From Cyclobacteriaceae bacterium (GTDB taxonomy: Bacteria; Bacteroidota; Bacteroidia; Cytophagales; Cyclobacteriaceae), in the NCBI GenBank assembly GCA_041745535.1, contig JBGTIS010000298.1, positions 1 through 31,952 on the forward strand: a DNA stretch of 31,952 nucleotides. Direction: 5' to 3'. Shown here piece by piece: positions 5,249 through 24,838 of the stretch (its first letter is position 1; each line of letters opens with the position of its first letter). Below the pieces are notes generated by a model. The model saw only the letters and a program-made list of their open reading frames with translations, had not been told where the DNA came from and did no database searches. Both the position numbers and the translations under genes were made by a program.

Positions 5249-5537
5249 AATTAACTTAATTTTTATTTAATACAATTCGTCACAAAACAGGCAACGGTAT
5301 CTGCTCACACTAAATCTTAAAAGCGAAGAAATGTTTAATGCGATTTCATTTAAATTTTCCTGCTACAATTATATTACTTCAGCCTATTTAATAAAAAGCG
5401 ATTGGTTATAAATTTTATCCTGTACCGGGCAATTCGTAGCGTTACTACTGATCTGAAAGTGGTCTTTATCCAATAAATTGCACGTAAAACTGGTTTTCTG
5501 TTATAACTTTATATTTTGTCAAAAAATAATAAATTCT

Positions 5538-6101: not shown

Positions 6102-6243
6102 ACAACAGCTATTCGGTATATGCGAATGTTTTATAGGGTAATTAATTTAATTCCCAATAATTATCTACTACCTTCGCAGCAAAATAAAATTGTTAAATCC
6201 ACAAGAAAACAATCTTTTCTAACCTTTAACTGTATTCTATTAC

Positions 6244-9057
6244 ATGCCTAAGGACAATAGCATAAAATCTATACTGATCATAGGGAGTGGTCCCATCATT
6301 ATCGGACAGGCTTGCGAATTTGATTATTCAGGCTCACAGGCGGCCAAATCATTGCGGGAAGAAGGCATTGAGGTTACCCTCATCAATTCTAATCCGGCAA
6401 CTATTATGACCGACCCTGTGATGGCCGACCATATTTATCTGCGGCCGCTGGAAAAAAAGTATATTATTGAAATACTGGAGAAACATAAAATAGATGCCGT
6501 TTTACCCACCATGGGTGGACAAACCGCGCTTAATCTGGCTATTGATTGCGAACAGGCAGGTATTTGGAAAAAATATGGTGTACGCATTATTGGGGTAGAC
6601 ATCAATGCCATAGAAACTACCGAAGACCGGGAAAAATTCAGGCTGCTGATGAAGAAGTTAAACATCAATGTGTGTGAAGGGCGTACCGCTACCTCTTTTT
6701 TATTAGGGAAAGAAATAGCCCAGGAAATAGGCTTTCCCCTGGTAATCAGACCATCTTATACCCTAGGTGGTACCGGAGGTGGCTTTGTGGAAAAACCTGA
6801 GAATTTCGACAAAGCCCTGAACAATGGCTTACATGCTTCTCCCATTCACGAAGTTCTGATAGAACAAAGCATTATGGGCTGGAAAGAATATGAGCTGGAA
6901 TTGCTGAGAGATAACATTGGCAATGTCATTATTATCTGTTCGATAGAGAATTTTGACCCTATGGGCGTACATACCGGAGATTCTATCACCGTTGCTCCAG
7001 CCATGACCTTACCCGACACAGTATACCAGGAAATGCGCGATCTGGCGATCAGAATGATGAATGGAATCGGACAATTTGCCGGAGGCTGTAACGTACAGTT
7101 TGCCGTTAATCCGGAAGACGATTCTATCATTGCCATAGAAATTAATCCACGGGTATCTCGGTCATCTGCCCTGGCATCGAAAGCTACCGGATATCCCATT
7201 GCCAAAGTAGCCGCCAAATTAGCCATTGGCTATAATTTGGATGAGCTTAAAAACCAGATTACTGAAACCACGCCCGCCTTCTTTGAGCCTGCGCTGGACT
7301 ATGTAATTGTAAAAATTCCGCGCTGGAACTTCGAGAAATTCCAGGGCGCCGATCCGCTGTTGGGCTTGCAGATGAAAGCCGTAGGAGAAGTGATGGGCAT
7401 TGGCCGCACCTTTCAGGAAGCCCTGCAAAAAGCCTGTCAGTCGCTGGAAATTAAGCGAAATGGTCTGGGTGCTGATGGCAAAGAAGTAACCGATCAGGAA
7501 AAAATACTGTACAGCCTGGAACACCCCAGTTGGGACCGGTTATTCCATATTTACGATGCCTTTAAACTGGGCATATCTTTCTCAACCATTGAGCGGCTCA
7601 CCAAAATAGACAAGTGGTTTTTGCGGCAAATCGAAGATCTGGTTGATTTTGAGGACGACCTTGAGAAATTTACCCTGGATACCATTCCAAAGGACATGCT
7701 GCGCACAGCCAAAACAAAAGGTTATGCCGACCGGCAGATTGCCCATCTGTTGCGTTGCCTGGAAAGTCAGGTGTATAATAAAAGGATGGAAATGAACATC
7801 CACCGGGTGTACAAAGTGGTAGATACCTGTGCGGCTGAATTTGAAGCAAAAACACCTTATTTTTATTCTACTTTTCAGGAAGAAAACGAATCGGTGGTTA
7901 CCGACAAGAAAAAAGTAGTAGTACTGGGATCGGGCCCGAACCGCATTGGGCAGGGTATCGAATTTGACTATTCCTGCGTGCATGGGGTGCTGGCTGCCAA
8001 AGAATGTGGTTACGAAACCATCATGATTAACTGCAACCCCGAAACCGTTTCCACTGATTTTGACATTGCCGACAAGCTGTATTTTGAGCCCGTGTTCTGG
8101 GAACATATCTACGACATTATTCTGCACGAAAAGCCGGTAGGAGTAATTGTACAGTTGGGCGGACAAACCGCGCTGAAACTGGCTGAAAAACTGAACCGCT
8201 ATGGCATAAAAATTCTGGGTACCAGTTTTGAAGCACTGGACTTGGCAGAAGATCGCGGTAGTTTTTCTAACTTACTGAAAGAAAATGATATTCCTTATCC
8301 AGAGTTTGGTGTGATTGAGGATGCGGAATCGGCCCTGGAATTATCGCATACCATCGGATTTCCACTGCTGGTGCGCCCTTCGTATGTATTGGGTGGGCAA
8401 AGCATGAAAATTGTGATCAATGAGAAGGAACTGGAATCGCATGTGGTGCATATTTTACAAGATATGCCTGACAATAAAATTCTGCTCGACCATTTTCTGG
8501 ATGGCGCCATTGAAGCTGAAGCGGATGCCATTTGCGATGGGGAGCAGGTGTATATTATTGGCATTATGCAGCACATTGAGCCAGCCGGTATCCACTCAGG
8601 CGATTCCTATGCCGTACTGCCTCCCTACAATCTGGGCGACTTTGTGATGCGGCAAATTGAAATGTATACCAAAAAAATTGCCCTGGCGCTGAGAACCGTC
8701 GGGCTCATTAACATACAGTTTGCCATTAAAGACGATAAGGTTTATATTATAGAAGCGAATCCACGGGCTTCCCGTACCGTACCTTTTATTTGCAAGGCGT
8801 ATGGCGAACCTTATGTGAATTATGCTACCAAAGTAATGCTGGGAGAAAAGAAAGTAAGCGACTTTACCTTCAAGCCTAACAAAAAAGGATATGCCATTAA
8901 GGTGCCTGTATTCTCATTCAATAAATTCCCGAATGTAAATAAAGAATTAGGCCCGGAAATGAAATCAACCGGCGAAGCCATATACTTTATTGATGATTTA
9001 ATGGACGATTATTTTCTGGAAATTTACCGAGAACGAAACTTATATCTGAGTAGATAA
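6244..9057 (+). CDS. carB: Carbamoyl-phosphate synthase large subunit, short form lacking the C-terminal MGS-like allosteric domain
   Basis: 937-aa protein with duplicated ATP-grasp halves (IIGSGPIIIGQACEFDYSGSQA and VLGSGPNRIGQGIEFDYSCVHG), the oligomerisation domain, and the NPRASRTVPF and GPEMKSTGE motifs near the C-terminus. It ends about 35 aa after STGE, where E. coli CarB continues with a ~135-aa MGS-like domain. Confidence 0.9.
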   Translation: MPKDNSIKSILIIGSGPIIIGQACEFDYSGSQAAKSLREEGIEVTLINSNPATIMTDPVMADHIYLRPLEKKYIIEILEKHKIDAVLPTMGGQTALNLAIDCEQAGIWKKYGVRIIGVDINAIETTEDREKFRLLMKKLNINVCEGRTATSFLLGKEIAQEIGFPLVIRPSYTLGGTGGGFVEKPENFDKALNNGLHASPIHEVLIEQSIMGWKEYELELLRDNIGNVIIICSIENFDPMGVHTGDSITVAPAMTLPDTVYQEMRDLAIRMMNGIGQFAGGCNVQFAVNPEDDSIIAIEINPRVSRSSALASKATGYPIAKVAAKLAIGYNLDELKNQITETTPAFFEPALDYVIVKIPRWNFEKFQGADPLLGLQMKAVGEVMGIGRTFQEALQKACQSLEIKRNGLGADGKEVTDQEKILYSLEHPSWDRLFHIYDAFKLGISFSTIERLTKIDKWFLRQIEDLVDFEDDLEKFTLDTIPKDMLRTAKTKGYADRQIAHLLRCLESQVYNKRMEMNIHRVYKVVDTCAAEFEAKTPYFYSTFQEENESVVTDKKKVVVLGSGPNRIGQGIEFDYSCVHGVLAAKECGYETIMINCNPETVSTDFDIADKLYFEPVFWEHIYDIILHEKPVGVIVQLGGQTALKLAEKLNRYGIKILGTSFEALDLAEDRGSFSNLLKENDIPYPEFGVIEDAESALELSHTIGFPLLVRPSYVLGGQSMKIVINEKELESHVVHILQDMPDNKILLDHFLDGAIEAEADAICDGEQVYIIGIMQHIEPAGIHSGDSYAVLPPYNLGDFVMRQIEMYTKKIALALRTVGLINIQFAIKDDKVYIIEANPRASRTVPFICKAYGEPYVNYATKVMLGEKKVSDFTFKPNKKGYAIKVPVFSFNKFPNVNKELGPEMKSTGEAIYFIDDLMDDYFLEIYRERNLYLSR

Positions 9058-9088
9058 GTTTAGTATAGTAAAAACAAATTTTTCGAAG

Positions 9089-9373
9089 ATGTCACTAAAG
9101 TTATTAATCATATTATTCCTTGTTGGTTTTATAGTTTATAAAGCAGGCCGGTTTTTATATAAAATACTTTATTTTCTGGCAGGAGGAAGACCTCCTTATT
9201 CCCAGCAGACCTTCAATGGAAAAAACTATCGTAATGGAACGGCCAACGGCCAACCCGATAAACGCCGGGCGCCAAACAGCAATCTGAATATTGAATATAT
9301 TCCTGATGATAAAAATAAAGATAAAAAAGATTTTAGAGGCGGGGAATATGTCGATTATGAAGAAGTAAAATAA
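9089..9373 (+). CDS. Small membrane-anchored protein, DUF4834-like
   Basis: 94 aa. An N-terminal TM helix (LKLLIILFLVGFIVYKAG) is followed by a polar, low-complexity tail ending in the GGEYVDYEEV motif, which I recall as characteristic of the Bacteroidota DUF4834 family. The assignment is from memory, not from a search. Confidence 0.5.
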   Translation: MSLKLLIILFLVGFIVYKAGRFLYKILYFLAGGRPPYSQQTFNGKNYRNGTANGQPDKRRAPNSNLNIEYIPDDKNKDKKDFRGGEYVDYEEVK

Positions 9374-9394
9374 TTTATAGAAAACTTATTTTAT

Positions 9395-10141
9395 ATGAGA
9401 GAAGATGAAGTTGAAGAGTATTTAGAAAGTGTATCCATGGATATAACATTTCTGGAAGAAAAATTACAAAATGATATTCAAAATCCAGCGATAACGTCAT
9501 TATCGAAACCAAAAGTTGCTTCTTCGCTTGAAAATTTAAGAAGATGTTTGGATTATATAACTAAAGATGTTTTTGAAATTGTAATCCTACCTTCACTTAC
9601 TAACTTTCCAGAGGAAAAAAGAGAAAAATTAAGAAAAAATTCAAAATTTCCATATGGAAAAGACCTGTCTCAATTTACAAGTATGCTTAATAGCTCATTG
9701 CCTGATCTTGAAAATTTAGACCAGGATGTTTTTATGGAATTTAAATCAATTCAACTTTTCGAAAATAAACAGAGTACAGTTTATGATTTATGTAGTCGGA
9801 CAAATACTTTAAAACATGATCATTCAAACCAAATTAAACAGGAACTAAATGATGGTCTGATCGTTGAAGATAGTTTTTATATAAAAAACTCTTCTGATAT
9901 ACTTTTTGTTGATTGTTCAATTGAGGATAAAAAAATTGACTATTTAAGAATTAATGATTCTGATACTTGTGACGTAGAATTAATTGCCAACTTACCACTT
10001 GAATTGAGAAGTATTAATCATAGAACCACATTTTGTTTTAAAGACTCAAAAATAGATGTGCTAAACTTAATTACACATAGCCTTATTATTATTTTAAAAT
10101 TCAAAGAAAAGATTTACTATTTACTTCAAAAAAATATATAA
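9395..10141 (+). CDS. Hypothetical protein, AT-rich orphan gene
   Basis: 248-aa ORF, clearly more AT-rich (~30% GC by eye) than its flanks. It starts 21 nt after the previous gene and ends in a strong hairpin terminator. No domain was recognised. Residues ~135-141 form R-x5-H (SRTNTLKH), which fits the HEPN Rx4-6H pattern but is not diagnostic. Confidence 0.5.
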   Translation: MREDEVEEYLESVSMDITFLEEKLQNDIQNPAITSLSKPKVASSLENLRRCLDYITKDVFEIVILPSLTNFPEEKREKLRKNSKFPYGKDLSQFTSMLNSSLPDLENLDQDVFMEFKSIQLFENKQSTVYDLCSRTNTLKHDHSNQIKQELNDGLIVEDSFYIKNSSDILFVDCSIEDKKIDYLRINDSDTCDVELIANLPLELRSINHRTTFCFKDSKIDVLNLITHSLIIILKFKEKIYYLLQKNI

Positions 10142-10177
10142 AAAAAGCAAACCAATAGCATGGTTTGCTTTTTTTAT
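10141..10177. terminator. Rho-independent, potentially bidirectional terminator hairpin
   Basis: The sequence is AAAAAA-GCAAACCA-atagca-TGGTTTGC-TTTTTTT: an 8-bp perfect stem with a 6-nt loop, an A-run upstream and a T-run downstream. It lies immediately after the stop codon of the 9395-10141 gene. Confidence 0.6.
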
Positions 10178-10210
10178 TTCGTTTTGCCTGCTTCTACTCA
10201 AATACTCACT

Positions 10211-10268
10211 CGCTCCGTCCTTCAGGGCGGAGCAATAAATGCCCAAATAGGGAGAGGGCTTTAGCCCT
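10211..10268. repeat. REP-like palindromic element cluster, left flank of the RAYT
   Basis: The 20-mer CTCCGTCCTTCAGGGCGGAG at 10212-10232 is the reverse complement, with one mismatch, of the copy at 10743-10762. A hairpin AGGGCT-tt-AGCCCT sits at 10255-10268. Confidence 0.6.
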
Positions 10269-10689
10269 TTTCAAACTCATATTTGCTGATAAATTCTTCA
10301 TATTCTTCCTGAAAGCCTTTCTTTGTATGATGGGCTTCCTGGTTACGAATATATCGCCTTACCACCTCAACCTGTGAATGACTTACCGAAGCCGCGAAAT
10401 ATTCACCCTGCCAGCCAAACTTTGTTTGGGTCAGTTTGTTTTTGTTGATCCAAAAAGAAGATTCACCTTTTAGTAAATTGGCGATGGTAGCTATATTTTG
10501 ATCCGAATTAATGGACAGTAAACAATGTACATGCTCAACATACCCGTTGATATGGTCCAGATGAATTCCCTTACCCTGAGCATATTCTTTGATGTGTTGA
10601 AAAACCTTATACCTGATACTTTTGGTCAGATAAGGCTTTCTGTCTTTGGTCGTCCAAACCATGTGTATCCAGATTTTTATATATGGCAT
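10261..10689 (-). CDS. REP-associated tyrosine transposase (RAYT), IS200/IS605-like Y1 transposase
   Basis: 142 aa. The HuH motif is present (YVEHVHCLL). The motif WQGEYFAASV carries a catalytic-Tyr candidate. The overall MPYIKIWIHMVWTTKDRKPYL start is typical of TnpA_REP / PF01797 proteins. The gene sits directly between inverted REP-like palindromes. Confidence 0.8.
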   Translation of the reverse strand: MPYIKIWIHMVWTTKDRKPYLTKSIRYKVFQHIKEYAQGKGIHLDHINGYVEHVHCLLSINSDQNIATIANLLKGESSFWINKNKLTQTKFGWQGEYFAASVSHSQVEVVRRYIRNQEAHHTKKGFQEEYEEFISKYEFEKG

Positions 10690-10706
10690 TTTTCCTTCCT
10701 TTTTTA

Positions 10707-10794
10707 AGGGCTAAAGCCCTAAGTTCTTTTGATCTTTCTTAACTCCGCCCTGAAGGACAGAGTTACTTACCAGATTTTAAAAGGCTAAAGCCAT
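10707..10794. repeat. REP-like palindromic element cluster, right flank of the RAYT
   Basis: AGGGCT-aa-AGCCCT hairpin at 10707-10720. The 20-mer CTCCGCCCTGAAGGACAGAG at 10743-10762 is an inverted copy of 10212-10232. A third small hairpin GGCT-aa-AGCC sits at 10783-10792. Confidence 0.6.
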
Positions 10795-11064
10795 GCTATT
10801 TTTGCTATGTCTTCTGATTTTCACCTTCAAGAAAGATATTCCTAAGTACCTTTATATGAGATTTTGTGTTTTCAGAGGTGTTTAGTTAAGCATCTCATGG
10901 GTTTTCAAGAGTTTTTTTATGCCAATTTGTTTGTATTGCTGCCAAAAGGGTGGAAAGGAGTATGTAAATTTCTTTTAATAGTCAGCGCATTGATTAGGCA
11001 AGGAACCAAGGTTGGATCTGCCTGCTTCGTCATAGCTTTAGAAAAGGTAATCGAATTCTTATAT

Positions 11065-11844
11065 TTATTTCATCCTTTCCAGCAATTCCTTCATTTGGCT
11101 TTCCAAAACGGCTACCCGCTCTTCCAGCATTACTGGAGGCTTTAACAGGGTACTGAAATATCCTTCTACTTTCCACAGTTCCAACAGGTCTTTTGGCTGA
11201 ATTTCCAGGGGGTTGGCCACCGCGTTATCCGCTTTAAATTCCCAGGTTTTGCGTTTGGTCGCCAGCCGCCTTACATAAATATCAGTTGGGGTAACTGCCA
11301 CACACACATCTCCGATTTCCAGGGTTTTGGCTTCTCCCACCGAAACCGGGGAGCATGAAAGGATGTCTCCGGCATGCAATCCTTGCCCGTTGAACTCCAT
11401 GGCATTGTCCTGCACCTCAAAAGCGCGCGACTTTTTGTGTCGGGTATGCGGCAAACGAATGCAGGGCAGCTTATTGATAAAGTCTTTATTCAGGTAATTC
11501 ACAATATATTCCAGGTAAATTTCCTTGTTGACCAGCGGCGTATCTTCCTGGCTTTCATCTGTGTCGGTTTTCCGGACTGTCGCAGGCTGACTCTCCTTGA
11601 ATTCTTTATTAAAGATATCGAATTTATAGAGTTCGTTCACGGTAAGCTCTTTGGTTAGCAGCACATCTACCGATAAGCCAAAATAATTGGCTATTTTTAT
11701 GATAGTGTCTGTTTTTGGTTCAGCCCTTCCTTCTTCATAAGCCCCTACACTGGGCCGGGCTAATCCAAACATTTCAGCAAAATCAGCCTGACTGATCTTC
11801 TTTACCGTTCTTATTTTTCTGATATTTTTCCCTATCAATGACAT
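11065..11844 (-). CDS. XRE-family HTH transcriptional regulator with a C-terminal S24 (LexA/cI-like) peptidase-fold domain; the catalytic dyad appears substituted
   Basis: The N-terminal HTH is IRKIRTVKKISQADFAEMFGLARPSVGAYEEGRAEP..IIKIANYFGLSVDVLL, which is XRE / PF01381-like. The C-terminal region FEVQDNAMEF..GLHAGDILSC...IYVRRLATK aligns by eye to the LexA segments VSGMSMKD..GDLLAV...VKRLKK, but the nucleophile Ser is Ala (DNAM) and the general-base Lys appears to be Ala (RLAT). The gene is divergent from the PspA-flotillin-AAA cluster. Confidence 0.7.
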   Translation of the reverse strand: MSLIGKNIRKIRTVKKISQADFAEMFGLARPSVGAYEEGRAEPKTDTIIKIANYFGLSVDVLLTKELTVNELYKFDIFNKEFKESQPATVRKTDTDESQEDTPLVNKEIYLEYIVNYLNKDFINKLPCIRLPHTRHKKSRAFEVQDNAMEFNGQGLHAGDILSCSPVSVGEAKTLEIGDVCVAVTPTDIYVRRLATKRKTWEFKADNAVANPLEIQPKDLLELWKVEGYFSTLLKPPVMLEERVAVLESQMKELLERMK

Positions 11845-11993
11845 TTTATAAAAAAATTTTAGCTAAAAATTTGAGCAATGCTAACTTTTTTAGTAAACTT
11901 ACGTAAATAATTCTTAACCGAAAACAAAATTGAATTAATTATCCCAAATTGAAGTAAATATTCTTTTAGAAAAAATTTAAACGATCAACTATC

Positions 11994-12413
11994 ATGAACC
12001 AATCATTTGCCAAGGTAAAAGATTATCTCCTGGAGCTGGATTACACCATGGTGTACGAAAGTGAAAAAGAAGGCGTGTTTATCATTGAAAATGAAGAGAT
12101 GGGCATCAGTAAAATGGTGGTAGGCTGTGCCGACCCCCTACTGATTATCGAACAGTATATTTTCGATATCCGGGAGCCCTCTATGGAAATTTATCAAAAG
12201 CTGCTGCAAAAAAACCGTGATATTATTCATGGCGCTTTTGTACTCGACGAATCAGGCCGAAAGGTGATATTCCGTGATACACTGCAAATTGAAAATCTGG
12301 ACCTGAACGAACTGGAAGCCTCCTTTAACTCTTTAGGACTATTATTAAGCGAGTATTCCGACGAAATTATCAGGTTTAGCAAGCAGCATGCGCTTAAACA
12401 TATACATTCATAA
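11994..12413 (+). CDS. YbjN/YjfI-like protein (T3SS-chaperone-like fold), first gene of the PspA cluster
   Basis: 139-aa acidic protein. The N-terminal pattern (VKDYLLELDYTMVYESEKEGVFIIENEEMGIS..VVGCADPLLIIEQ) resembles the YbjN family (PF10722). Its position immediately upstream of a PspA homologue mirrors the E. coli yjfI-yjfJ arrangement. The assignment is pattern-based, not from a search. Confidence 0.45.
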   Translation: MNQSFAKVKDYLLELDYTMVYESEKEGVFIIENEEMGISKMVVGCADPLLIIEQYIFDIREPSMEIYQKLLQKNRDIIHGAFVLDESGRKVIFRDTLQIENLDLNELEASFNSLGLLLSEYSDEIIRFSKQHALKHIHS

Positions 12414-12469
12414 AACAACTTTACCCAATATTTATCAATTAAAATTCATTAACTTAAAATATTATAACA

Positions 12470-13186
12470 ATGAACATTTTCAGTAGATTTTTCAAAATAG
12501 GACAGGCAGAAACTCATGCGGTGATTGATCAGCTTGAAAACCCAATCAGGATGACCGAGCAGGGTATCCGCGATATGAAAGTGGATCTGGATAAAAGCTT
12601 ACAGGCATTGGCCGAAGTAAAAGCCATGACCATTCGCGCTAAAAACGATACCCATACTTATCAGCACCAGGTAACCGATTATGAAAAGAAAGCGATTTTA
12701 TTACTAAAAAAAGCAGAAGCCGGAGAAATGGAAAGTACAGAAGCCGACCGCCTCGCTACTGAAGCCCTGACCAAAAAAGAACAGGCACAGCAGCAGGTAA
12801 GCAGACTTACCGAAGAGTATAAAAAATACGAAGCTTCGGTACAACAATTGGAGAGCAACATCAGAACGTTGCGAAGCAACATCAGCAAATGGGAAAACGA
12901 ACTTCGTACGCTGACGGCCCGGATGAAAGTGAGCTCTGCTACCAAAACCATGAACAAGCAACTGGCAAAAATTGATTCTTCCAGTACGGTTTCTATGCTG
13001 GAAAGAATGAAGGAGAAAGTAGAGCAGGAAGAAGCGCTGGCTGCCTCTTATGGTGAAATTGCCAACGAAAGCAAATCGGTAGATGAAGAGATCGACAAAG
13101 CCCTGGATCATAAACCAGGACAGGCTTCTAAAAGTCTGGAAGACCTGAAAAAACGGATGGGTCTGTCTCAGAATCCAGCTGAATAA
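12470..13186 (+). CDS. pspA: PspA/IM30 (Vipp1/LiaH) family protein, a bacterial ESCRT-III homologue
   Basis: 238 aa. The N-terminus MNIFSRFFKIGQAETHAVIDQLENPIRMTEQGIRDMKVDLDKSLQALAEVKA is the canonical PspA/IM30 start (amphipathic helix plus the 'dpe.ml.q.ir.m...l...r.a.a...a' pattern). It is followed by a long heptad coiled coil. Confidence 0.85.
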   Translation: MNIFSRFFKIGQAETHAVIDQLENPIRMTEQGIRDMKVDLDKSLQALAEVKAMTIRAKNDTHTYQHQVTDYEKKAILLLKKAEAGEMESTEADRLATEALTKKEQAQQQVSRLTEEYKKYEASVQQLESNIRTLRSNISKWENELRTLTARMKVSSATKTMNKQLAKIDSSSTVSMLERMKEKVEQEEALAASYGEIANESKSVDEEIDKALDHKPGQASKSLEDLKKRMGLSQNPAE

Positions 13187-13273
13187 TACCATAGAACCGG
13201 TATGATCTGATCCATCAGGTCATAGCCGGTTCCATCCCGGCGGGGTACGCTAATAATAATAAATAGCACACAG

Positions 13274-13906
13274 ATGAAAGAATTGCTTAACGCCGCCGTT
13301 TCCGCTCCTAATCTGCTTCCCACAGCACTGCTCGTGTTTGTGCTGGTATACTGGATCGTGGTAATTCTGGGAGCCATTGACCTGGATTTTATCGACCTCG
13401 ATCTGGAATTGGGCGAAACCGAGGCAGACGGCGTGGCGGAAGGTGAGTTTTCAGCTGCCTGGCTCAACGCAGTATTGTCGTTTTTCAACTTGGGCCAGGT
13501 TCCTTTCATGGTGTTTTTAACATTTCTGATTATCCCGATCTGGGTAATCTCGGTAATGGGCAACTATTACCTCGACAATACTTCATTCGGCATATCAATG
13601 CTATTATTCATGCCCAATCTGGTAATCAGTTTGTTTATCGCCAAATTCCTGACCATGCCGTTCATCGGATTATTCCGAACCATGGATCAGGAAACAGGCG
13701 AAACAATGATTGGAAAAATTTGTACCGTTACCTCAACCGTAAGCAGCGGTAAGGTAGGACAGGCAAAGGTGAAAACCACCGGCGCTCCGCTTTTGCTTAA
13801 TGTGCTTACCTATAATGAGGTAACCTTACAACACGGCGATACGGGTATTGTAATCGATCGTCGGAAGGACCGCAATATTTATTTTATTGAACCCTATATA
13901 AATTAA
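13274..13906 (+). CDS. YqiJ/NfeD-like inner-membrane protein with a C-terminal OB-fold
   Basis: 210 aa. It has several TM helices (LLPTALLVFVLVYWIVVILGAI; VPFMVFLTFLIIPIWVISVM; ISMLLFMPNLVISLFIAKFL) followed by a C-terminal beta-rich segment, GKICTVTSTVSSGKVGQAKVKTTGAPLLLNV..GDTGIVIDR, which is typical of NfeD/YqiJ OB-folds. It is 8 nt upstream of, and presumably coupled to, the flotillin gene. This mirrors yqiJ-yqiK and nfeD-floT. Confidence 0.65.
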   Translation: MKELLNAAVSAPNLLPTALLVFVLVYWIVVILGAIDLDFIDLDLELGETEADGVAEGEFSAAWLNAVLSFFNLGQVPFMVFLTFLIIPIWVISVMGNYYLDNTSFGISMLLFMPNLVISLFIAKFLTMPFIGLFRTMDQETGETMIGKICTVTSTVSSGKVGQAKVKTTGAPLLLNVLTYNEVTLQHGDTGIVIDRRKDRNIYFIEPYIN

Positions 13907-16191: not shown

Positions 16192-16941
16192 ATGTATGTA
16201 GTCAATGTGTTACTCGGAGCCATATTTTGTATCATAGCTTTTGCGCTTAATAAGTACAATGCCCGGTATGTGCTTTCGGGGTACAATACCCTTTCGGAAG
16301 AGGAAAGAAAACAATTTGATCTGAAAAATTATCTCAGGTTTTTTAAAAGGTTTTTTCTTACCGTTGGTATGGCTATTATGGTTGGCTTTTTTCTGCTCGA
16401 TCAGTTGGTAGACACAAAAATCGCTACCGCATTTACGGTACTATTTCCATTGATCGCGCTCTTTTATTTCATGATCAGCAGTAGCCGGTTTAACCATAAT
16501 CCGCCAGAAAAGAAGAAGTCAATAGCTCTGATTATATCATTTATCATTATCGGCATTTCCATTATTGGGTCTACTACCTTATTGGTTGGAAGTATTCTGG
16601 ATAACAAAATTACTTTCGAGGAAAAAGCTACCAGCATATCAGGCTTTTATGGAGAAGATATTCCTTACCTCAATATTATTTACCTGGATACTGTGAACAC
16701 ACTTCCCGCCATTAGTTACCGTGCTAATGGCATTGCATTGGGGAGTAGCTGCCTGAAAGGATATTTCAAAACCCGGGATCGAAATACGGTAAAGCTGCTG
16801 ATTAATGAGGACAAACCACCTTATATTCAGCTCAAAACCAATAACGATCAGTCTATCTTTTTCAATGCCAGCAACCCGGAACAAACTAAGTCTATTTACG
16901 ATAAACTGCGGGAACGCGTGATGTATATGTCTGTGAAATAA
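16192..16941 (+). CDS. Membrane protein with an N-terminal DUF3784-like TM domain and a C-terminal soluble domain
   Basis: 249 aa. The N-terminal TM helices and the GYNTLSEEERKQFD motif are characteristic of DUF3784 (PF12650), recalled from memory. About 110 additional residues follow two more TM helices. The gene ends 18 nt before the giant ATPase gene. Confidence 0.5.
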   Translation: MYVVNVLLGAIFCIIAFALNKYNARYVLSGYNTLSEEERKQFDLKNYLRFFKRFFLTVGMAIMVGFFLLDQLVDTKIATAFTVLFPLIALFYFMISSSRFNHNPPEKKKSIALIISFIIIGISIIGSTTLLVGSILDNKITFEEKATSISGFYGEDIPYLNIIYLDTVNTLPAISYRANGIALGSSCLKGYFKTRDRNTVKLLINEDKPPYIQLKTNNDQSIFFNASNPEQTKSIYDKLRERVMYMSVK

Positions 16942-16959: not shown

Positions 16960-19900
16960 ATGCCTGAAAATATGCCTGTTGTTGATGCTGGTCTAACCCA
17001 TGAAAAAGTAAAGCTGGAAGGTGGTTCGTACGAAATATTACAAAACCGTTTGAACCAACAGCGTGAAAAGCTTTTTGCTCAATTGGAAAAGCTGAATCAG
17101 TCGCGTAAAGAGGTTTTTGGTGCTATCGAAACCCAACTGATTGCTACCGAGCGTATTTCTACCGATCATAATTGCATTCCCTATGATATGGTGCCGGTAG
17201 GGCAACAGTTTATTTTTGGCTATAATGTGCATTTAGGCTTAAAATCGGAAATAGAACTTTCGGATGTTTTTAGTATGTATGAATATCAGGATCGTAGTTT
17301 CTACCGCCTTTCCCTGGAGCTAATCGAGAATGCTGATTTCGTCCGCGATTTCCAAAAATTGTATAAGTATTACAAGCATACGCGGTTTTCCCGATTTACC
17401 ACAGCAGGCCCTTACCTGTATATGATTTTTCAGGTAGGAAAAAGCGCATCCGATATCAAAGCTTTCAAATGGGGTATTAAAAGCAATACTTTACAATACC
17501 TGGACGATCGCAGCGATCATGAAATTACATTTCCGGCGCAACACGAATTTACCTGGAAAAGAACTACCCGCGATGACCAGCGGGAAGGGAAATTCCCGCA
17601 TATTTCTATTGAAAACCGCGTGTTTGTAGAAACTATTGGTGGTGACCTGACCATTAAGGTTGAGGATAATACCGATGAAGGGCAAGGCATTTATACAGAG
17701 CCTGTAGATGAAAAAGACCAAACCCTGGACGATGCTGAAATCTACTATGTTATTCTGGATCATATCATTCTATTGAAAATCAAACCCTACCAGGAAAAAG
17801 ACTTCCGGTTCCTGGCCTATAATGAGAAGCTTCGGACAGTCCGCCGGATTGATGCCATCAAACATGCCTGCCTGCTGCTACCCGACGATCAGGGTATTAT
17901 TTTTTCTGAAGGGTATTACCTGCAAACCGGTGAGTTCAAGCAGTTTGAAAGCCGGTTGGAAACCCGGTTGGAAACCCTGGTTTATGAGAAAAAAGTAACC
18001 TCACCCAATGGTGAAGATTTTCTCTATGTTTTCTATAACCAGCAAAACGGAGTGTATCTGTTGCTTCCTTATAACCTGATTGAGCAAACTGTAAAAAACC
18101 CGATCGTTTGCCATGGTTATGCCATTTTTGAGAATGGTGAACTTTGCTATTTCAATGCCGATAATGAACCCAAAAAGCACCATGCCATCCGCATCTGGCA
18201 AACCCCGTTTACCGGACCCGATTTTAAACTGGAAAGTCATGGCGAATCGTATCTGTTTAAAATCGGCAACAAAGATATTGTACGGGCGATGGCCGAATGC
18301 AATGCCATCAATTCGCTTATTCAGAAAGGCGATCAGTATCAGGACTTATATGCCGATTTGCGTAAAGAGGCAACCTCTATTCTGGACAGTTACCATTGGC
18401 TAAATCACGCTGATGCTTTTTTACTGAGCGAACCTTTAAAAGCCATTCACGAAACCGCTACCGCAGCCATTGACGAATTTGAGAAAGTCCGGAAAATTAG
18501 AAAAAACACCGAGGATCAGGTAAAAGAGGTAACGCAGGAAGCCGACGCACTGATTAATTCATTGAAAAGGGAAAAGCCGGCCCATATTTATGATTTTGTG
18601 AACCTGCTGTCCCGGCTTCGGGAACTATTGGGGAAAGTGCTTTCGCTCAAAGAATTGCGGTATGTAGATATAGCACTGGTAGAAAATTACGAGCAGAAAC
18701 TTAATGAAAACACCCGCGAAGTTTCGCGCCAATGTGTACAATTTCTTTTGCGGGAAAAAGCCCTGGAGCCATACCATCAGCAGGTTCAGGAATTAGATAC
18801 TTCCGTAGAAAAAGTAACCAAAGTAGTGGAAGCTCACCAAGTTGAAACTGAAACAGATAAAACCAGTGCGGAACTGGAAATGCTGATGGAAACGGTGAGC
18901 AACCTTGAAATTGAAGATGCCACAGAAACTACCCGCATCATCGATGCTATTTCGGCTATTTTTTCTTCTTTAAATAAAGTAAAAGCCAGCCTGAAACGGA
19001 AAAGACAGGAATTACTGACCCAGGAAGGAAAAGCGGTTTTTATTGCCCAATCCAAACTTATTCAGCAGGCGCTGGTCAATTACCTGGATATTTCCGATAC
19101 GCCGGAAAAGTGCGATGAATATGCCGCCAAACTGCTGGTACAACTGGAAGAACTGGAAGGCAAATTTTCTGAGTTTGAAGCGTTTTCCGAAAAAATAGCA
19201 GCCCAGCGCTACGAAGTGTATAATGCCTTTGAAGCTAAAAAAGTTTTACTGATTGAAACCAAAAACAAGCGGGCCAACCTGTTGTTGCAATCTGCCAATA
19301 GGGTTATCAAATCCATTCAGAGCCGTGTCAACAGTTTTAAAGACGTAAGTGAGCTCAATGGTTATTTCGCTGCCGATTTTATGGTGAATAAAATCAGGGA
19401 AATCGCGCGGGAACTGCTTACCCTGGGCGATACGGTAAAAGCTGATGATATACAGAGCAGACTCAAAACCACCCGGGAAGATGCCGTGCGGCAACTGAAA
19501 GATAAGGCCGAACTCTTCGTGAACGGAGCCGGCATTATTCGCTTTGGTAATTTCCAGTTTTCGGTCAATACAAGTGCATTGGGCATTACCACCGTTGTTA
19601 AAGACGAGCAGATGTATTTCCATCTTACGGGCACCAATTTCTATGAGCTGGTCAGTGATCCCGAAATTACAGCCCACCGGGTATTGTGGAATCAGCACCT
19701 GGTTTCTGAAAATCAGCAGGTATACAGGGCCGAATACCTGGCTTTTAAAATACTGGAAGCAGGCGGAAAGCGGTTCAATACCGCAGATGGCAACCATTTA
19801 AGTACAAAAGAATTGAATAACCTGCCGGAAAAAGAATTGCTGCAATATGTACAGCAGTTTATGGCCGTTCGCTATCAGGAAGGATACATCAAAGGCGTAC

Positions 19901-21900
19901 ACGATTTTGATGCTTCACTGATACTGAAAGGTCTGGTGGAAATTCTGACCACAGCTGGCTTGCTTCGGTATACGGCAGAAACTCGTGCCTGTGCCACGCT
20001 GTTCTGGAAAACCTTTTCGCGGGAAGATCAGAAACAGCTTTTTGACGATCAGATCAAAGGTGCTGGCGCTATTTTAACAGCTTTTCCGGAAAGCGATGAG
20101 TTTGATAATTTACTGGCAGCTTTACAGAAAGAGCTTGTGAATTTTGTCAGGGAAACCGGTTTATTTTCCGAAACCAGTGTGCCTCAGGCGGCGACTTACC
20201 TGTTTCACGAACTTACCCATGATAACGATTTTGTAACCGACCAGCAGGCAGTTACCATTGCGGAAGCCTTTTCAAAACATATCAAAGAAACCAAAAGTAA
20301 GGAAGCTTTTGACAATTCCATATCCCGGTTCAAAAATCATCCGGTATTACAATTTAATTTGGTCCGAAAGTGGATCAGGTCGTTTTTAAAGCAAACCAGG
20401 CAGGCAGCACAGCTTGAGTATGCCGATGAAGCCAGTGTGTTGCTTTTTTATGGTGATCCTGATCCCGCACATAAAGTAGCCATCGCGCAAAGTCATGAAA
20501 TACCAGCCTTGCGGGGTACGCATGCCGTTATTGTGGAAGGGAAATACCAACTCCACCTCCATCAGTTTATGGATAAACTCCAGCAATACGATGCGCTAAC
20601 GGTACCTGCTTTCAACCGCTTTTCTGAATTGAAGAAAGCACTTACCCAGCAGTTTGAAGCCGACCTAAGGCTTAACGAATTAAAACCGATCGTGATGTCG
20701 TCTTTTGTGCGTAACAAACTGATTGACAAAATTTATTTACCTTTGATTGGTGCCAACCTGGCAAAGCAGATAGGGACTGCCGGTGAAAACAAGCGCACCG
20801 ACCGCATGGGCATGCTGATGTTGATATCGCCGCCGGGGTATGGCAAAACCACCCTGATGGAGTACATTGCCCACCGGCTGGGCATCGTGTTTGTGAAAAT
20901 TAACGGGCCGGCCATCGGGCATAAAGTTACTTCCGTTGATCCGGCAGAAGCTACCAATGCGGCTGCACGGGAGGAACTGGAAAAGCTGAACCTGGCTTTT
21001 GAAATGGGCGACAATGTAATGATTTATGTAGACGATATCCAGCATTGTAACCCTGAATTTATGCAAAAATTTATTTCCCTCTGCGATGCGCAGCGCAAAA
21101 TTGAGGGCGTATACAAAGGGAAAAGCCGAACGTATGATTTTCGTGGCAAAAAGGTTTGTGTGGTAATGGCCGGGAACCCCTATACTGAAAGCGGTGAGAA
21201 ATTCCAGGTTCCGGATATGCTTTCCAATCGTGCCGATATTTACAACCTGGGCGATATTATTGGCGATTCCGCCCATGAATTTAAGCTCAGTTACCTGGAA
21301 AATGCCCTCACTTCCAATCCGGTGTTGCATCAGCTGGCCGGAAAAAGTCAGAAAGACCTGTACACGTTCGCGGATATTGCCGCTACGGGTATGCACGACG
21401 GCATCGACTTTGAAACCAATTATTCGCCAGAAGAAATCAGCGAATATGTGGCGGTACTTAAAAAGCTGCTGGTGGTACGCGACACCGTATTGGCGGTAAA
21501 CAGCGAATACATTCGGTCGGCCGGTCAGGCTGATATGTACCGCACCGAGCCTGCTTTCAAACTGCAGGGTTCTTACCGCGACATGAATAAGCTTGCCGAA
21601 AAAGTAATGCCTTTGATGAATGAGAAAGAGCTGCAAACGCTAATCATGACACACTATGAAAACGAAGCCCAAACCCTAACCACGGGTGCCGAGGCCAATC
21701 TGCTGAAGTTCAAAGAAATGACAAAGCAGATGACCGATAATGAAAAAACACGGTGGACTCAGATTAAAAACATATTTGCCGAGCAACAGCAAATGAAAGG
21801 CTACGGCGAGCACCAGGTAGGGCAGGCCATCGCCAAAATAGGAAACACACTGGTACAAAGTCTGGAAGGCATTAAAGAGGCTTTAAACAAAGAGAAGTAG
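16960..21900 (+). CDS. Giant (1646-aa) protein: an N-terminal ~1250 residues of unknown, mostly helical or coiled-coil sequence plus a single C-terminal MoxR/AAA_5-like AAA+ ATPase module
   Basis: Uninterrupted 4.9-kb ORF. The Walker A motif is LISPPGYGKTTLMEY (~aa 1290). The Walker B-like motif is MIYVDDIQHCNPEF, which is DD rather than DE. The sensor-1 region is VCVVMAGNPYTESGEKF (compare MoxR ATQNP.E.G). The motif VPDMLSNRADIY matches the MoxR LLDRF. No second P-loop exists anywhere in the protein. The N-terminal 1250 aa have no motif I can recognise. Confidence 0.8.
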   Translation: MPENMPVVDAGLTHEKVKLEGGSYEILQNRLNQQREKLFAQLEKLNQSRKEVFGAIETQLIATERISTDHNCIPYDMVPVGQQFIFGYNVHLGLKSEIELSDVFSMYEYQDRSFYRLSLELIENADFVRDFQKLYKYYKHTRFSRFTTAGPYLYMIFQVGKSASDIKAFKWGIKSNTLQYLDDRSDHEITFPAQHEFTWKRTTRDDQREGKFPHISIENRVFVETIGGDLTIKVEDNTDEGQGIYTEPVDEKDQTLDDAEIYYVILDHIILLKIKPYQEKDFRFLAYNEKLRTVRRIDAIKHACLLLPDDQGIIFSEGYYLQTGEFKQFESRLETRLETLVYEKKVTSPNGEDFLYVFYNQQNGVYLLLPYNLIEQTVKNPIVCHGYAIFENGELCYFNADNEPKKHHAIRIWQTPFTGPDFKLESHGESYLFKIGNKDIVRAMAECNAINSLIQKGDQYQDLYADLRKEATSILDSYHWLNHADAFLLSEPLKAIHETATAAIDEFEKVRKIRKNTEDQVKEVTQEADALINSLKREKPAHIYDFVNLLSRLRELLGKVLSLKELRYVDIALVENYEQKLNENTREVSRQCVQFLLREKALEPYHQQVQELDTSVEKVTKVVEAHQVETETDKTSAELEMLMETVSNLEIEDATETTRIIDAISAIFSSLNKVKASLKRKRQELLTQEGKAVFIAQSKLIQQALVNYLDISDTPEKCDEYAAKLLVQLEELEGKFSEFEAFSEKIAAQRYEVYNAFEAKKVLLIETKNKRANLLLQSANRVIKSIQSRVNSFKDVSELNGYFAADFMVNKIREIARELLTLGDTVKADDIQSRLKTTREDAVRQLKDKAELFVNGAGIIRFGNFQFSVNTSALGITTVVKDEQMYFHLTGTNFYELVSDPEITAHRVLWNQHLVSENQQVYRAEYLAFKILEAGGKRFNTADGNHLSTKELNNLPEKELLQYVQQFMAVRYQEGYIKGVHDFDASLILKGLVEILTTAGLLRYTAETRACATLFWKTFSREDQKQLFDDQIKGAGAILTAFPESDEFDNLLAALQKELVNFVRETGLFSETSVPQAATYLFHELTHDNDFVTDQQAVTIAEAFSKHIKETKSKEAFDNSISRFKNHPVLQFNLVRKWIRSFLKQTRQAAQLEYADEASVLLFYGDPDPAHKVAIAQSHEIPALRGTHAVIVEGKYQLHLHQFMDKLQQYDALTVPAFNRFSELKKALTQQFEADLRLNELKPIVMSSFVRNKLIDKIYLPLIGANLAKQIGTAGENKRTDRMGMLMLISPPGYGKTTLMEYIAHRLGIVFVKINGPAIGHKVTSVDPAEATNAAAREELEKLNLAFEMGDNVMIYVDDIQHCNPEFMQKFISLCDAQRKIEGVYKGKSRTYDFRGKKVCVVMAGNPYTESGEKFQVPDMLSNRADIYNLGDIIGDSAHEFKLSYLENALTSNPVLHQLAGKSQKDLYTFADIAATGMHDGIDFETNYSPEEISEYVAVLKKLLVVRDTVLAVNSEYIRSAGQADMYRTEPAFKLQGSYRDMNKLAEKVMPLMNEKELQTLIMTHYENEAQTLTTGAEANLLKFKEMTKQMTDNEKTRWTQIKNIFAEQQQMKGYGEHQVGQAIAKIGNTLVQSLEGIKEALNKEK

Positions 21901-22083: not shown

Positions 22084-22662
22084 ATGGCGATACCATATTA
22101 TTTAGTAGACAATGCCCTTACAGAAAACCCCAATGATTTTCGGGGTGTGTTGGGGCTGAAGGGGGTTAAAACAGAGCTGGACATTGTTGTCAGGATTCTG
22201 AAAAACAATGTGGGTATCTCAGAGGCGGAGATTCTGGCGGTGTTAAAGCAGGAGCAGAGTGCCATTAAGGAATTTCTGGAAGATGGGTACAAAGTAGATG
22301 CCGGGCTGTTTGCCATTAAGCCTACCATGAAGGGAGTGTTCGATAGCGCGAAAGAAATTTTTACGGATGAAAAACATGCCTTACGATTCAGAATAGCCCC
22401 GCGGAAAGCACTGAAGGCAATTTTGAAAAATATTTCTCTGGTTAAAGTAGTGAATGGCGGAGTACGTCCTGTGATTACCGTTTTTGAGGATATGATCAGC
22501 AAAACCAACGACGACACCATTACCCCCGGAAAAACCGCCAAACTGTTTGGCGACAAGCTAAAGTTTGACGTGGAAGATGTGGAGCAGGGCATTTTCTTTA
22601 TTAAAGATAAGTATAAGGATAATTCAAATAGGAAGCATAAAAAAGGAATCATTTCTTGGTGA
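22084..22662 (+). CDS. HU-HIG-like (HU-fold) N-terminal domain protein with a DUF4469-like C-terminal domain
   Basis: 192 aa. The N-terminal pattern MAIPYYLVDNALTENPNDFRGVL....ELDIVVRILKNNVGISEAEILAVLKQEQSAIKEFLEDGYKVDAGLFAIKPTMKGVF resembles the Bacteroidota-specific HU-like 'HU-HIG' family. The C-terminal half (VITVFEDMISKTND.TITPGKTAKLFGDKLKFD) resembles the DUF4469 partner domain. It is the last co-directional gene after the giant ATPase. Confidence 0.5.
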   Translation: MAIPYYLVDNALTENPNDFRGVLGLKGVKTELDIVVRILKNNVGISEAEILAVLKQEQSAIKEFLEDGYKVDAGLFAIKPTMKGVFDSAKEIFTDEKHALRFRIAPRKALKAILKNISLVKVVNGGVRPVITVFEDMISKTNDDTITPGKTAKLFGDKLKFDVEDVEQGIFFIKDKYKDNSNRKHKKGIISW

Positions 22663-22911: not shown

Positions 22912-24030
22912 AACTAAGTACTAAGACAAATTTAGTTTAAATCATGTAATTTTGTTCAAAAAAAGGTATGGGCAAAATCCGAGTCATAGAATTAACAGAG
23001 GCACAACGCTTAGCATTAGAAAAAGGCTATCAGCAAGGGAGAACTCACTTTTTCCGTCAATTGTGCCAGATGGTGCTTCTTAAAAGCCAAAGACGCTCTT
23101 CAAAAGAACTAGGAGCTATCATAGGTAAATGTGAGCAAACAGTGAATAGCTGGTTAGATCGTTGGGAGAGGGAAGGCATTACTGGTTTGCAAATCAAGCC
23201 GGGCCGGGGTGCTAAGCCTAAAATAGATCAACAAAAGGATATGGAAAAGGTCAAACAAGTGGTTAAAGGGAACCGACAACGCCTATCATTAGCCAAAGCT
23301 GAATTGGAAGTAATGCTTAACAAAAAGTTTAGTACCAAAACATTAAATCGCTTTGTAAAAAAAATGGTGGACGATTCAAACGCATTAGACGAGCTTTAAA
23401 AGGAAAACCCTTAGCTGAGGTATATGCGCTAAAGAAGGCATATTTATTTGAGATAGAACAATTAGCTGAAAAACAATGGATTGATTTATATTATGGCGAT
23501 GAAACACAAGTAAGCCTGACGCCTTGCGTGCCCTATGGCCGCGTCGGCGGTCCGATGGCAATTTTCTGACGAGCAAGTCCTCATGCCTACGGCAAAAGGA
23601 GGTAAACTCAACTGTTTTGGGCTTATATCCCGACGGAATCACTTAATCTGCAAGACTACCAGTCAATCTATTGACAGTGAATTTATTGTCCAACAAATGG
23701 AAACCTTATCCTTGAAAATTAACAAACCAACCGTTGTAGTGTTAGATAACGCGCAACCGCACACTGCTCATAAAGTCAAAGCAAGCTTCCAAGTTTGGCA
23801 AAATCGGGGCTTATATATCTTTTATCTGCCCACTTACTCTCCACAACTTAATATCGCTGAAACCCTGTGGAGAAAGCTTAAATATGAATGGCTTAGGCCA
23901 GAAGATTATCAATCAGAGGAAAATTTAGCCTATGCTGTTAATCGTGCTTTTGCTGCTGTGGGTTCTTTACTTAGTATTCAGTTTTCCCCTTTTAATTTAA
24001 ACTAATTATGTGCAGGTACTTAGTAGCAAG
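22912..24030 (+). mobile_element. IS630 (Tc1/mariner-like) family insertion sequence, degenerate copy; boundaries approximate
   Basis: The transposase reading frames are listed separately as a pseudogene. Putative imperfect terminal inverted repeats share the core ACTAAGTAC / GTACTTAGT, at ~22912-22927 (AACTAAGTACTAAGAC) and ~24014-24030 (GTACTTAGTAGCAAGT). Confidence 0.55.
22968..24005 (+). pseudogene. IS630-family DDE transposase disrupted by two frameshifts
   Basis: ORF1 (22968-23399, frame 0) encodes the HTH/winged-helix N-terminus (LTEAQRLALEKGYQQGRTHFFRQLCQ...NSWLDRWEREGITGL). A middle segment is open only in frame 2 (23402-23569) and carries the first catalytic D region (LFEIEQLAEKQWIDLYYGDETQVSL). 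ORF2 (23535-24005, frame 0 again) carries the rest of the DDE_3 domain (VVVLDNAQPHTAHKV...LYIFYLPTYSPQLNIAETLW). Two frame changes are needed to join the three pieces. Confidence 0.75.
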
Positions 24031-24102: not shown

Positions 24103-24838
24103 TCAAAGTATCCCCCTTTTTTGATACAGTTGCTTGAGAAACTCCTTGACTTTGTTTCTGTTAAAATACTCTGGATCAAAAAGTATGTGTTCCTGCCAAT
24201 ACCCTTCTATCTGCACTGACTCAGTAATGTTATTTTTTAGTTTTTGCTCAGTAGAAATAATAGCTCCTAATCGCGCCCATATCTTGATTTGCTGATGAAA
24301 TAGTTTTAATAAAAACTGATCGTATAATTTAGGCCCACCTATTTCTTCTGGGAGACAAGCTCGTTTTCCGGCAAGACAGACCGGATACTGTATAGCAGGA
24401 TCGAAAGGTAATAGCTTTTTCCATCTAATCAGAGGTTTCCACACTTCTGTAAAGTCAATTCATAAGTGAATTTCAAGCGTTGGCCGCGCCATTGAGCAGA
24501 GGATTCAAGTCTTTCAAGCACACTTTCATGGGATGGTCACTGAACATCATGCCCCCAATATGGCTAACACCATAATTTTTGCCGTAGATTTTGAGGCAAT
24601 TCAAATGTGTATCACTCCATCCCATGACATGCTGAACAATGTAATGGAGTTCAGCCATGGTGGTGTCAGCTCGGACAATAAATTTTCTCCAAATCATCGG
24701 AGAGATGCCAACCAGATGAAATTTAAATTGATAGAGCGCTTCGGTTTCAGCAGCCATATTGGCAAGTGTGCTTTTAACCAATATAATAAATTTGATATTG
24801 GTGAACAATGACGCAGCCAGTATCTTGTATTGCCCCAC
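24103..24838 (-). pseudogene. pRiA4b ORF-3 family protein (PF07929-like), split by a frameshift into two ORFs
   Basis: The upstream ORF (24473-24838) contains the hallmark N-terminal motif YQFKFHLVGISPMIWRKFIVRADTTMAELHYIVQHVMGWSDTHL. The downstream ORF (24103-24444) contains CLAGKRACLPEEIGGPKLYDQFL, which is the family's C..PE..GG.W.Y motif region. The two ORFs are in different frames (24838 mod 3 = 1 versus 24444 mod 3 = 0). Confidence 0.65.

Follow-up and report, generated by a model that had tools for sequence, protein, structure and literature searches.

A giant AAA+ ATPase encoded with YqiJ-like and flotillin-like proteins, and in many Bacteroidota with PspA, as a candidate remodeller of membrane-associated scaffolds

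We analysed a stretch of 31,952 nucleotides from a Cyclobacteriaceae bacterium (phylum Bacteroidota; GenBank assembly GCA_041745535.1, contig JBGTIS010000298.1, positions 1 to 31,952 of the forward strand; hereafter the window), in which a gene for a giant ATPase follows a series of genes for predicted membrane-associated proteins (Table 1). Its product belongs to the DUF3686-DUF7902-AAA+ family and combines, in this order, a propeller-like head, ~430 residues of coiled coil, a middle domain of alpha-helices and one intact MoxR/AAA_5-like AAA+ module. The gene is the third member of a widespread module encoding a YqiJ (NfeD-like) protein, a flotillin of the SPFH group and the ATPase. Most Bacteroidota and at least one gammaproteobacterium add a chaperone-PspA pair to this module, and the Bacteroidota set lies beside a divergent gene for a LexA-like repressor. 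In the window, the genes are ordered YqiJ, flotillin, DUF3784, ATPase.

The 1646-residue open reading frame (ORF) proposed by the first-pass annotation, which had been made from the DNA letters and a list of ORFs, was confirmed. The NCBI gene model on the same contig (P0001; 1642 residues, 100% identity) starts four codons downstream, at position 16972; the start codon is uncertain because the N-terminal 20 residues lack conservation and have a predicted local distance difference test score (pLDDT) below 50 in the structural model. Homologues with as little as 29% identity retain the architecture of the 1646-residue protein over its full length, far beyond what chance would give.

Residues 1-520 were modelled with AlphaFold from an alignment of 59 sequences (pLDDT 90.2, predicted template-modelling score (pTM) 0.88), and a second, monomeric model covered residues 861-1646 (m0a327dd3e008; pLDDT 91.9, pTM 0.81). 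In the first of these, a helix at residues 23-53 precedes ~28 beta-strands that fall within residues 59-414, with further helices at 431-519. Pfam DUF3686 (PF12458) matches residues 39-479 (nt 17074-18396; E = 8.2e-188) over profile positions 3-448 of 448, and DUF7902 (PF25472) matches over its whole profile at residues 600-684 (nt 18757-19011; E = 8.1e-29), inside a spacer (residues 430-860) composed of 3.0% Pro+Gly and 52% Glu, Lys, Gln, Arg, Leu and Ala. The first ~1250 residues had initially been described as helical or coiled-coil-like, with no recognisable motif. This description holds for the spacer, where the coiled coil is confined to approximately residues 430-860, and for the helical region at 861-1250, but not for the beta-rich residues 59-414, where structure prediction yields a propeller-like head, nor for the absence of motifs, since both DUF3686 and DUF7902 can be placed. 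A secreted adhesin was considered and rejected, as no signal peptide or transmembrane-like segment was apparent when the sequence was read by eye, without a predictor.

The middle domain (residues 861-1250) is compact and mostly alpha-helical in the model. A Pfam search with this domain in isolation returned only noise at E ≤ 10. Residues E917, R923, G979, H981 and D984 are invariant in an alignment of 41 full-length homologues (down to 29% identity), as is the motif YxKGVHDxDA (residues 976-985, nt 19885-19914), and they could form a binding or catalytic site. The segment that carries them (residues 917-985) corresponds to window positions 19708-19914 (+), and R1009, E1157 and H1188 are near-invariant in the same domain. 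The possibility that this region holds a second, degenerate AAA domain was rejected, as the model shows a helical bundle and no P-loop fold.

The predicted catalytic machinery resides in the C-terminal part. All four ATPase motifs quoted by the first-pass annotation are present at the residues it gave, both Pfam AAA and AAA_5 exceed their cut-offs, and a search with the regular expression G....GK[TS] found no further P-loop anywhere in the protein, in line with the earlier claim of a single one. Conservation of these motifs was assessed in the 41-sequence alignment, in the 59-sequence alignment (which shares with it only the query and five homologues), and by simple pattern matching in a fetched set of 363 family proteins. 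Invariant in the first are S1290-T1297, D1358, D1359, Q1361, H1362, G1405, N1406, P1407, N1423, R1424 and Q1536-R1540; the Walker A lysine K1296, D1358-D1359, the sensor-1 residue N1406, R1424 and R1540 are likewise invariant in the second, and are kept in the ~330-340 family members matched by regular expression. The string SPPGYGKTT occurs in 343 of the 350 fetched proteins with a Walker A motif. The annotation had also pointed to an Asp in place of the catalytic Glu in Walker B, and this substitution is real and family-wide: Asp-Asp is found in all but one of the ~348 fetched members covering the site, and is therefore a family trait and not a local defect. The sole exception, a protein of 1312 residues (P0233), carries LNGIEH in place of DDIQH, with Asn-Gly at the Asp-Asp site, and is presumably an inactive paralogue. 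Degeneracy of the module through loss of sensor or arginine-finger residues had been raised as a possibility, and these residues proved invariant. By its motifs, the ATPase module is thus intact and not degenerate, and the enzyme looks active, and the Asp-Asp Walker B, being invariant, hints at hydrolysis that is slow or triggered by a partner.

Table 1 Features of the window; nucleotide positions refer to the window and residue numbers to the ATPase
Feature	Size or residues	Position (nt)	Strand	Basis or remark
Giant ATPase gene	1646 codons	16960-21900	+	No interruption; ORF list and translation; Pfam DUF3686, DUF7902, AAA, AAA_5
Beta-rich, propeller-like domain	59-414	17134-18201	+	Core of Pfam DUF3686
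Coiled-coil-like helical spacer	430-860 (~430 residues)	18247-19539	+	Contains DUF7902
Middle domain	861-1250	19540-20709	+	Small beta unit, ~12-helix bundle and long linker helix in the model
AAA+ alpha/beta core	1251-1430	20710-21249	+	
Walker A, SPPGYGKTT	1290-1298	20827-20853	+	
Conserved beta2-alpha2 loop	1316-1333 (18 residues)	20905-20958	+	
Walker B, MIYVDDIQH	1354-1362	21019-21045	+	
Pre-sensor-1 beta-hairpin	1380-1393	21097-21138	+	Model; between alpha3 and beta4
Sensor-1, MAGNPY	1403-1408	21166-21183	+	
Candidate arginine finger, in DMLSNRAD	1419-1426	21214-21237	+	
Lid and C-terminal helical domain	1431-1646	21250-21897	+	All-helical in the model
Candidate sensor-2 motif, QGSYR	Q1536-R1540	21565-21579	+	All five residues invariant
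LexA-like regulator		11065-11844	-	Divergent; Pfam HTH_3 and Peptidase_S24
CesT/Tir-like chaperone, paired with PspA	139 residues	11994-12413	+	Pfam CesT_Tir_1, E = 2.7e-58
PspA/IM30 (ESCRT-III superfamily)	238 residues	12470-13186	+	Pfam PspA_IM30, E = 3.6e-45
YqiJ/NfeD-like membrane protein	210 residues	13274-13906	+	Homologues; window copy without Pfam match
Flotillin-like SPFH protein	721 residues	13915-16080	+	Homologues and family profile; window copy without Pfam match
DUF3784 membrane protein		16192-16941	+	Pfam DUF3784, E = 5.4e-15

The family is large and widely spread. More than 5800 protein clusters at 90% identity match the ATPase at E ≤ 1e-5, 433 clusters at 50% identity do so at E ≤ 1e-30, and among 185,579 species genomes at least 582 encode a member. 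The family's range takes in Bacteroidota, Actinomycetota, Planctomycetota, Verrucomicrobiota, Desulfobacterota, Myxococcota, Clostridia, Kiritimatiellota and Gammaproteobacteria. In NCBI and UniRef it goes by the name 'DNA repair ATPase', and the Pfam text for DUF3686 reads 'ATPase involved in DNA repair'. No paper behind this name was found in the searchable literature, and the label has no visible support.

To see which neighbours accompany the ATPase gene, the best-scoring 80 of the at least 582 loci were examined, and their ORFs were searched with the window's neighbouring genes and then with profiles built from the matches. In 60 of the 63 loci with at least 3 kb of upstream sequence, the ATPase gene is preceded on its own strand by a flotillin-like gene. 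Among the 62 loci with at least 6 kb upstream, a YqiJ-like gene is found in 55, PspA in 21, and a CesT-like gene in 19, always together with PspA; in these same 19 loci the LexA-like regulator gene occurs as well, in the same position and orientation. All 21 loci with PspA are from Bacteroidota, where they make up 21 of 28, and PspA was found within 10 kb in none of the 34 loci from Planctomycetota, Verrucomicrobiota, Desulfobacterota, Clostridia and Kiritimatiellota. In a Phycisphaerae bacterium, the PspA profile has a weak match (E = 3.3e-5) at L066 4766-5449, immediately after the ATPase gene; this may be a divergent PspA or mere coiled-coil noise.

Six distant loci, from Streptomyces, Actinoplanes, Ilumatobacter, Polyangiales, Pseudoalteromonas and Alteromonadaceae, were looked up in addition. 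YqiJ and flotillin genes lie directly upstream of the ATPase gene in all six, and PspA in only one, that of the Alteromonadaceae (L086; one of the two gammaproteobacterial loci examined). Here the order over positions 2119-13577 is DUF2170 (a YjfI-type chaperone), PspA, a 117-residue protein, YqiJ, flotillin, a 73-residue protein, ATPase, rhomboid protease and phospholipase D (PLDc_2). Given the near-constant presence of YqiJ and flotillin and the patchy presence of PspA, we therefore take YqiJ, flotillin and the ATPase as the core module, to which PspA was added along with a chaperone in at least two ways; the chaperone is CesT_Tir_1 in the Bacteroidota and DUF2170 in the Alteromonadaceae. 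The co-occurrence data thus divide the partnership with PspA that the first-pass annotation had proposed: it stands for 21 of 28 Bacteroidota loci and for the Alteromonadaceae, but fails in 34 of 34 loci from the five lineages above and in five of the six distant ones. Flotillin and YqiJ, and not PspA, are the constant partners.

Within the window, the ATPase gene lies downstream of both PspA and flotillin on the same strand and with short gaps, as expected if it is co-operonic with them, which had been the original claim. The flotillin-like protein consists of a transmembrane segment, an SPFH region, a long Glu/Ala/Lys-rich coiled coil and a C-terminal domain; four of its 23 homologues match Band_7 (best E = 3.3e-13), and the family profile matches the SPFH protein QmcA (8z5g) at E = 6e-4. 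Among 22 homologues of the YqiJ-like protein, YqiJ_N is matched by six and NfeD by one. For the DUF3784 gene, the 80 related loci yielded no homologue, so that it looks like a recent insertion into the operon; judged by this comparison, it falls outside the conserved module. Between positions 11700 and 22300, no terminator-like site was seen in the intergenic gaps of the plus strand, and promoter-like sites were fewer than expected from shuffled sequence, as counted with a sigma-70 consensus that is ill-suited to Bacteroidota. PADLOC defence models gave no match for the ATPase, flotillin, YqiJ, CesT or DUF3784 proteins, and only coiled-coil noise for PspA.

The association has a published precedent. 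Ravi et al. (2024, mSystems, PMC11237479) described operons that join CesT/Tir and PspA with three further genes, including one for a YqiJ/YuaF membrane protein, reported a wider spread for shorter operons that lack PspA and an additional phospholipase D in some Proteobacteria, and already drew the ESCRT/Vps4 analogy, making the same functional suggestion for the operon. Their Table S3 lists an operon of Dokdonia donghaensis (PspA ANH61663.1; regulator given as '<-CHTH+Protease') with the same gene order as the window (divergent cHTH+protease, CesT/Tir, PspA, YqiJ/YuaF, Band-7/flotillin, ATPase), and with an ATPase of the same domain order: beta-propeller, coiled coil and AAA ATPase. The sole difference is the additional DUF3784 gene that the window has between the flotillin and ATPase genes. 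Because both operon and analogy are listed there, the Vps4-like hypothesis of the first-pass annotation is a rediscovery of a published prediction and not a novelty, and the association itself, published in 2024, is no new discovery of ours. What the present analysis adds to that paper is the identification of flotillin and YqiJ as the constant partners, the MoxR/AAA_5-like character of the ATPase module, the beta-rich N-terminus, and the lack of support for the name 'DNA repair'. With regard to PspA and Vipp1, a 2025 review states that a Vps4-like ATPase 'appears absent in bacteria' (PMC7619361). SPFH proteins assemble into closed, cage-like oligomers, and in Bacillus subtilis YdjI ties PspA to the membrane (as cited in PMC7619361 and PMC11188069). 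A 2026 paper on Pseudomonas SPFH proteins makes no mention of the present ATPase.

We then considered to which AAA+ clade the module belongs. Its core has the standard order in the model (beta1-alpha1-beta2-alpha2-beta3-alpha3-beta4-alpha4-beta5). At the position of the helix-2 insert or pore loop (residues 1316-1333), the monomer model has an ordered, conserved loop without strands (pLDDT ~96), and no beta-hairpin insert of the MoxR type was seen there. A structural comparison of the module gave the highest figures for the MoxR ATPase CbbQ (15.5), dynein (14.5), NorQ (14.4) and midasin (14.3), and lower ones for ClpA (13.1), ClpB (12.7), NVL (12.4), Lon (12.0) and Vps4 (10.3-11.0). The top Foldseek matches in the PDB all came from hairpin-bearing clades (Hsp104, ClpC, MCM, RuvB, CbbQ, NorQ and Lon), with E-values (~1e-5) that fail to separate MoxR from Clp, MCM or RuvB; the best target-normalised template-modelling scores were those of NorQ (0.58) and CbbQ (0.55), the first match of the classical clade stood at rank 35, and Vps4 was outside the top 50. 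Sequence profiles were ambiguous, with Pfam scores of 32-35 bits for AAA and 27-30 for AAA_5. Searches of PDB sequences, with the single sequence or with a profile of the 41 sequences, matched only a P-loop stretch of 35-75 residues in VCP, Rpt3, Rix7 and RuvB (E ~1e-3 to 1e-4), and nothing in the remaining ~1500 residues. As first reported for this locus, no VWA protein is present: none was found among the large, non-overlapping ORFs of the window scanned with Pfam, and the gene tables for the six distant loci list none either.

Taken together, the modelled fold places the module in the MoxR/AAA_5-like group, as an outlier, because the model lacks the helix-2 beta-hairpin, no VWA partner accompanies it, and the protein carries a 1250-residue extension. 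The initial MoxR/AAA_5-type assignment is therefore upheld by fold and by an AAA_5 score above cut-off, but not by the helix-2 insert or the VWA partner, the sequence profiles being ambiguous. The module is not of the Vps4 clade, with which its kinship is that of the AAA+ superfamily only.

Comparison with known systems gives each resemblance its limits. With the MoxR proteins CbbQ and NorQ the ATPase shares the pre-sensor-1 beta-hairpin, the sensor-1 'GNP' and the downstream 'NRAD' arginine pattern, but it is five times larger, has Asp-Asp instead of Asp-Glu in Walker B, and scores as well with the generic AAA profile as with AAA_5. Like Vps4/CdvC, it is encoded with a gene of the ESCRT-III superfamily (PspA), here and in most Bacteroidota loci, and by analogy may do a comparable job; unlike them, its N-terminus is the beta-rich DUF3686 with no MIT match in Pfam, its module has the pre-sensor-1 hairpin and is not of the classical AAA clade, and its link with PspA is confined to some lineages. 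A functional parallel to the flotillin linkage is HflK/C with FtsH, where an SPFH scaffold works together with an AAA+ ATPase at the inner membrane, a pairing that we take from the literature and that gene linkage would suggest for the window. FtsH, however, belongs to the classical AAA clade and is a protease anchored in the membrane, whereas the present ATPase has a MoxR-like module and no Pfam protease match, and showed no transmembrane-like hydrophobic stretch when its sequence was read by eye, without a predictor. The AAA_5 modules of dynein and midasin differ in being fused six to a chain, whereas this bacterial protein has one and is encoded among membrane-protein genes.

The most likely client of the ATPase is the flotillin scaffold, with PspA as an add-on. 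We propose that the ATPase drives the remodelling of this scaffold and, where PspA is co-encoded, also serves or recruits it, a reading which to us stands evenly balanced between right and wrong. The enzyme would oligomerise through its AAA+ module and, fuelled by ATP, would build up, open or take apart the flotillin scaffold on the cytoplasmic side of the membrane, with the propeller-like head and the coiled coil reaching for and holding the client. Where PspA is encoded alongside, the machine would probably also act on PspA polymers, or be recruited with them, during membrane stress, and in Bacteroidota this PspA-linked role would fall under the LexA-like repressor. Several points weigh against this proposal. 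Gene linkage tells neither which client the ATPase has nor whether it remodels anything, and no experimental work on any family member was found in the searchable literature. The flotillin and YqiJ proteins of the window have no direct Pfam match, and their identities rest on homologues and profiles. The sample of 80 loci over-represents close relatives, and even in it the ATPase gene is an orphan in three of 63 loci (L019, L021 and L033), with no flotillin, YqiJ or PspA within ~7-10 kb upstream (7.7 kb for L033).

The same linkage data bear on the suggestion of the first-pass annotation that the ATPase is a dedicated, Vps4-like disassembly machine for PspA polymers, with flotillin merely a recruiting platform. 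It would explain why the gene lies downstream of PspA here and in three-quarters of the Bacteroidota loci (21 of 28), and why a differently built chaperone-PspA pair was added to this core in Alteromonadaceae; the ATPase has kept its motifs, and reviews know of no bacterial Vps4 counterpart (PMC7619361). We nevertheless find it unlikely, in view of the absence of an MIT domain and of the 34 loci in five lineages and five distant loci without PspA nearby, in which flotillin and YqiJ are nearly always there. A different alternative keeps flotillin as the partner and changes the activity: the protein would be an ATP-gated tether or switch and not an unfoldase, with the Asp-Asp Walker B as a slow timer and with the coiled coil and head spacing flotillin domains, loosely as the dynein stalk or the midasin linker do. 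DnaA also has a Walker B of the hhhhDD type (h, hydrophobic) and hydrolyses ATP slowly under the control of partners, and the invariance of Asp-Asp in place of Asp-Glu, the helical spacer of ~430 residues and the rank of dynein and midasin as the closest AAA folds after CbbQ would all fit such a role. Against it stand the single AAA module per chain, without a fused ring, and the 18-residue beta2-alpha2 loop and pre-sensor-1 hairpin, which occupy the positions of the substrate-contacting loops of translocating AAA+ proteins, and we consider the tether possible, if on the unlikely side.

Two further readings take the protein away from membrane scaffolds altogether. If the database name were right, the ATPase would be an SbcC/Rad50-like DNA repair enzyme under SOS-type control, and a long coiled coil, a gene for a LexA-like HTH+S24 regulator upstream and the concordant naming by NCBI, UniRef and Pfam could be cited for this. 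We regard it as very improbable: SbcC/Rad50 proteins have a split ABC-type head with an N-terminal P-loop, both of which are missing from a protein with a single C-terminal AAA+ module, the window ORFs scanned included no nuclease partner, the conserved neighbours are membrane proteins, and the literature offered no paper in support. Hardly any more credit is due to a standard chaperone of the MoxR type, which would mature a metal- or cofactor-containing client through a VWA/MIDAS adaptor encoded elsewhere. CbbQ and NorQ are indeed the best structural matches and AAA_5 is above cut-off, but VWA proteins are missing from the scanned window ORFs and from the six distant gene tables, the protein carries an N-terminal extension of 1250 residues, and the model has no beta-hairpin in helix 2.

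In its boldest form, the proposal of flotillin remodelling would make this family the missing ATP-driven remodeller of bacterial sub-membrane scaffolds, derived from the MoxR/AAA_5 group independently of Vps4, which opens or dismantles flotillin cages and, where co-encoded, PspA polymers. We put this forward as a tentative possibility, more doubtful than the proposal itself. If true, bacteria would have a functional counterpart of the ESCRT-III/Vps4 pair. The family offers a concrete, testable candidate both for a Vps4-like ATPase of PspA/Vipp1 and for the opening and recycling of SPFH/flotillin cages, and its merits as such are its presence in at least nine lineages, intact catalytic motifs, tight linkage to flotillin and repeated joining of PspA. 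The practical value lies in directing experiments to flotillin first and PspA second, and in correcting the 'DNA repair' label.

Other features of the window surround this operon. Directly downstream of the ATPase gene, at 22084-22662 (+), lies a gene for an HU-like DNA-binding protein of the Bacteroidota type (HU-DNA_bdg and DUF4469), which is probably unrelated to the module, as a search of the 80 related loci gave no homologue of it. A 248-residue ORF at 9395-10141 has no Pfam match. It falls within a region (9001-10141) where the G+C fraction drops to 0.30, compared with ~0.42 elsewhere. Remnants of mobile elements lie on either side of the operon, at 10261-10689 (-), 22968-24005 (+) and 24103-24838 (-): the upstream remnant is an IS200-type Y1 transposase, and those downstream comprise an IS630-like element, now in two ORFs (HTH and DDE_3), and a PRiA4_ORF3 gene that is likewise in two pieces.

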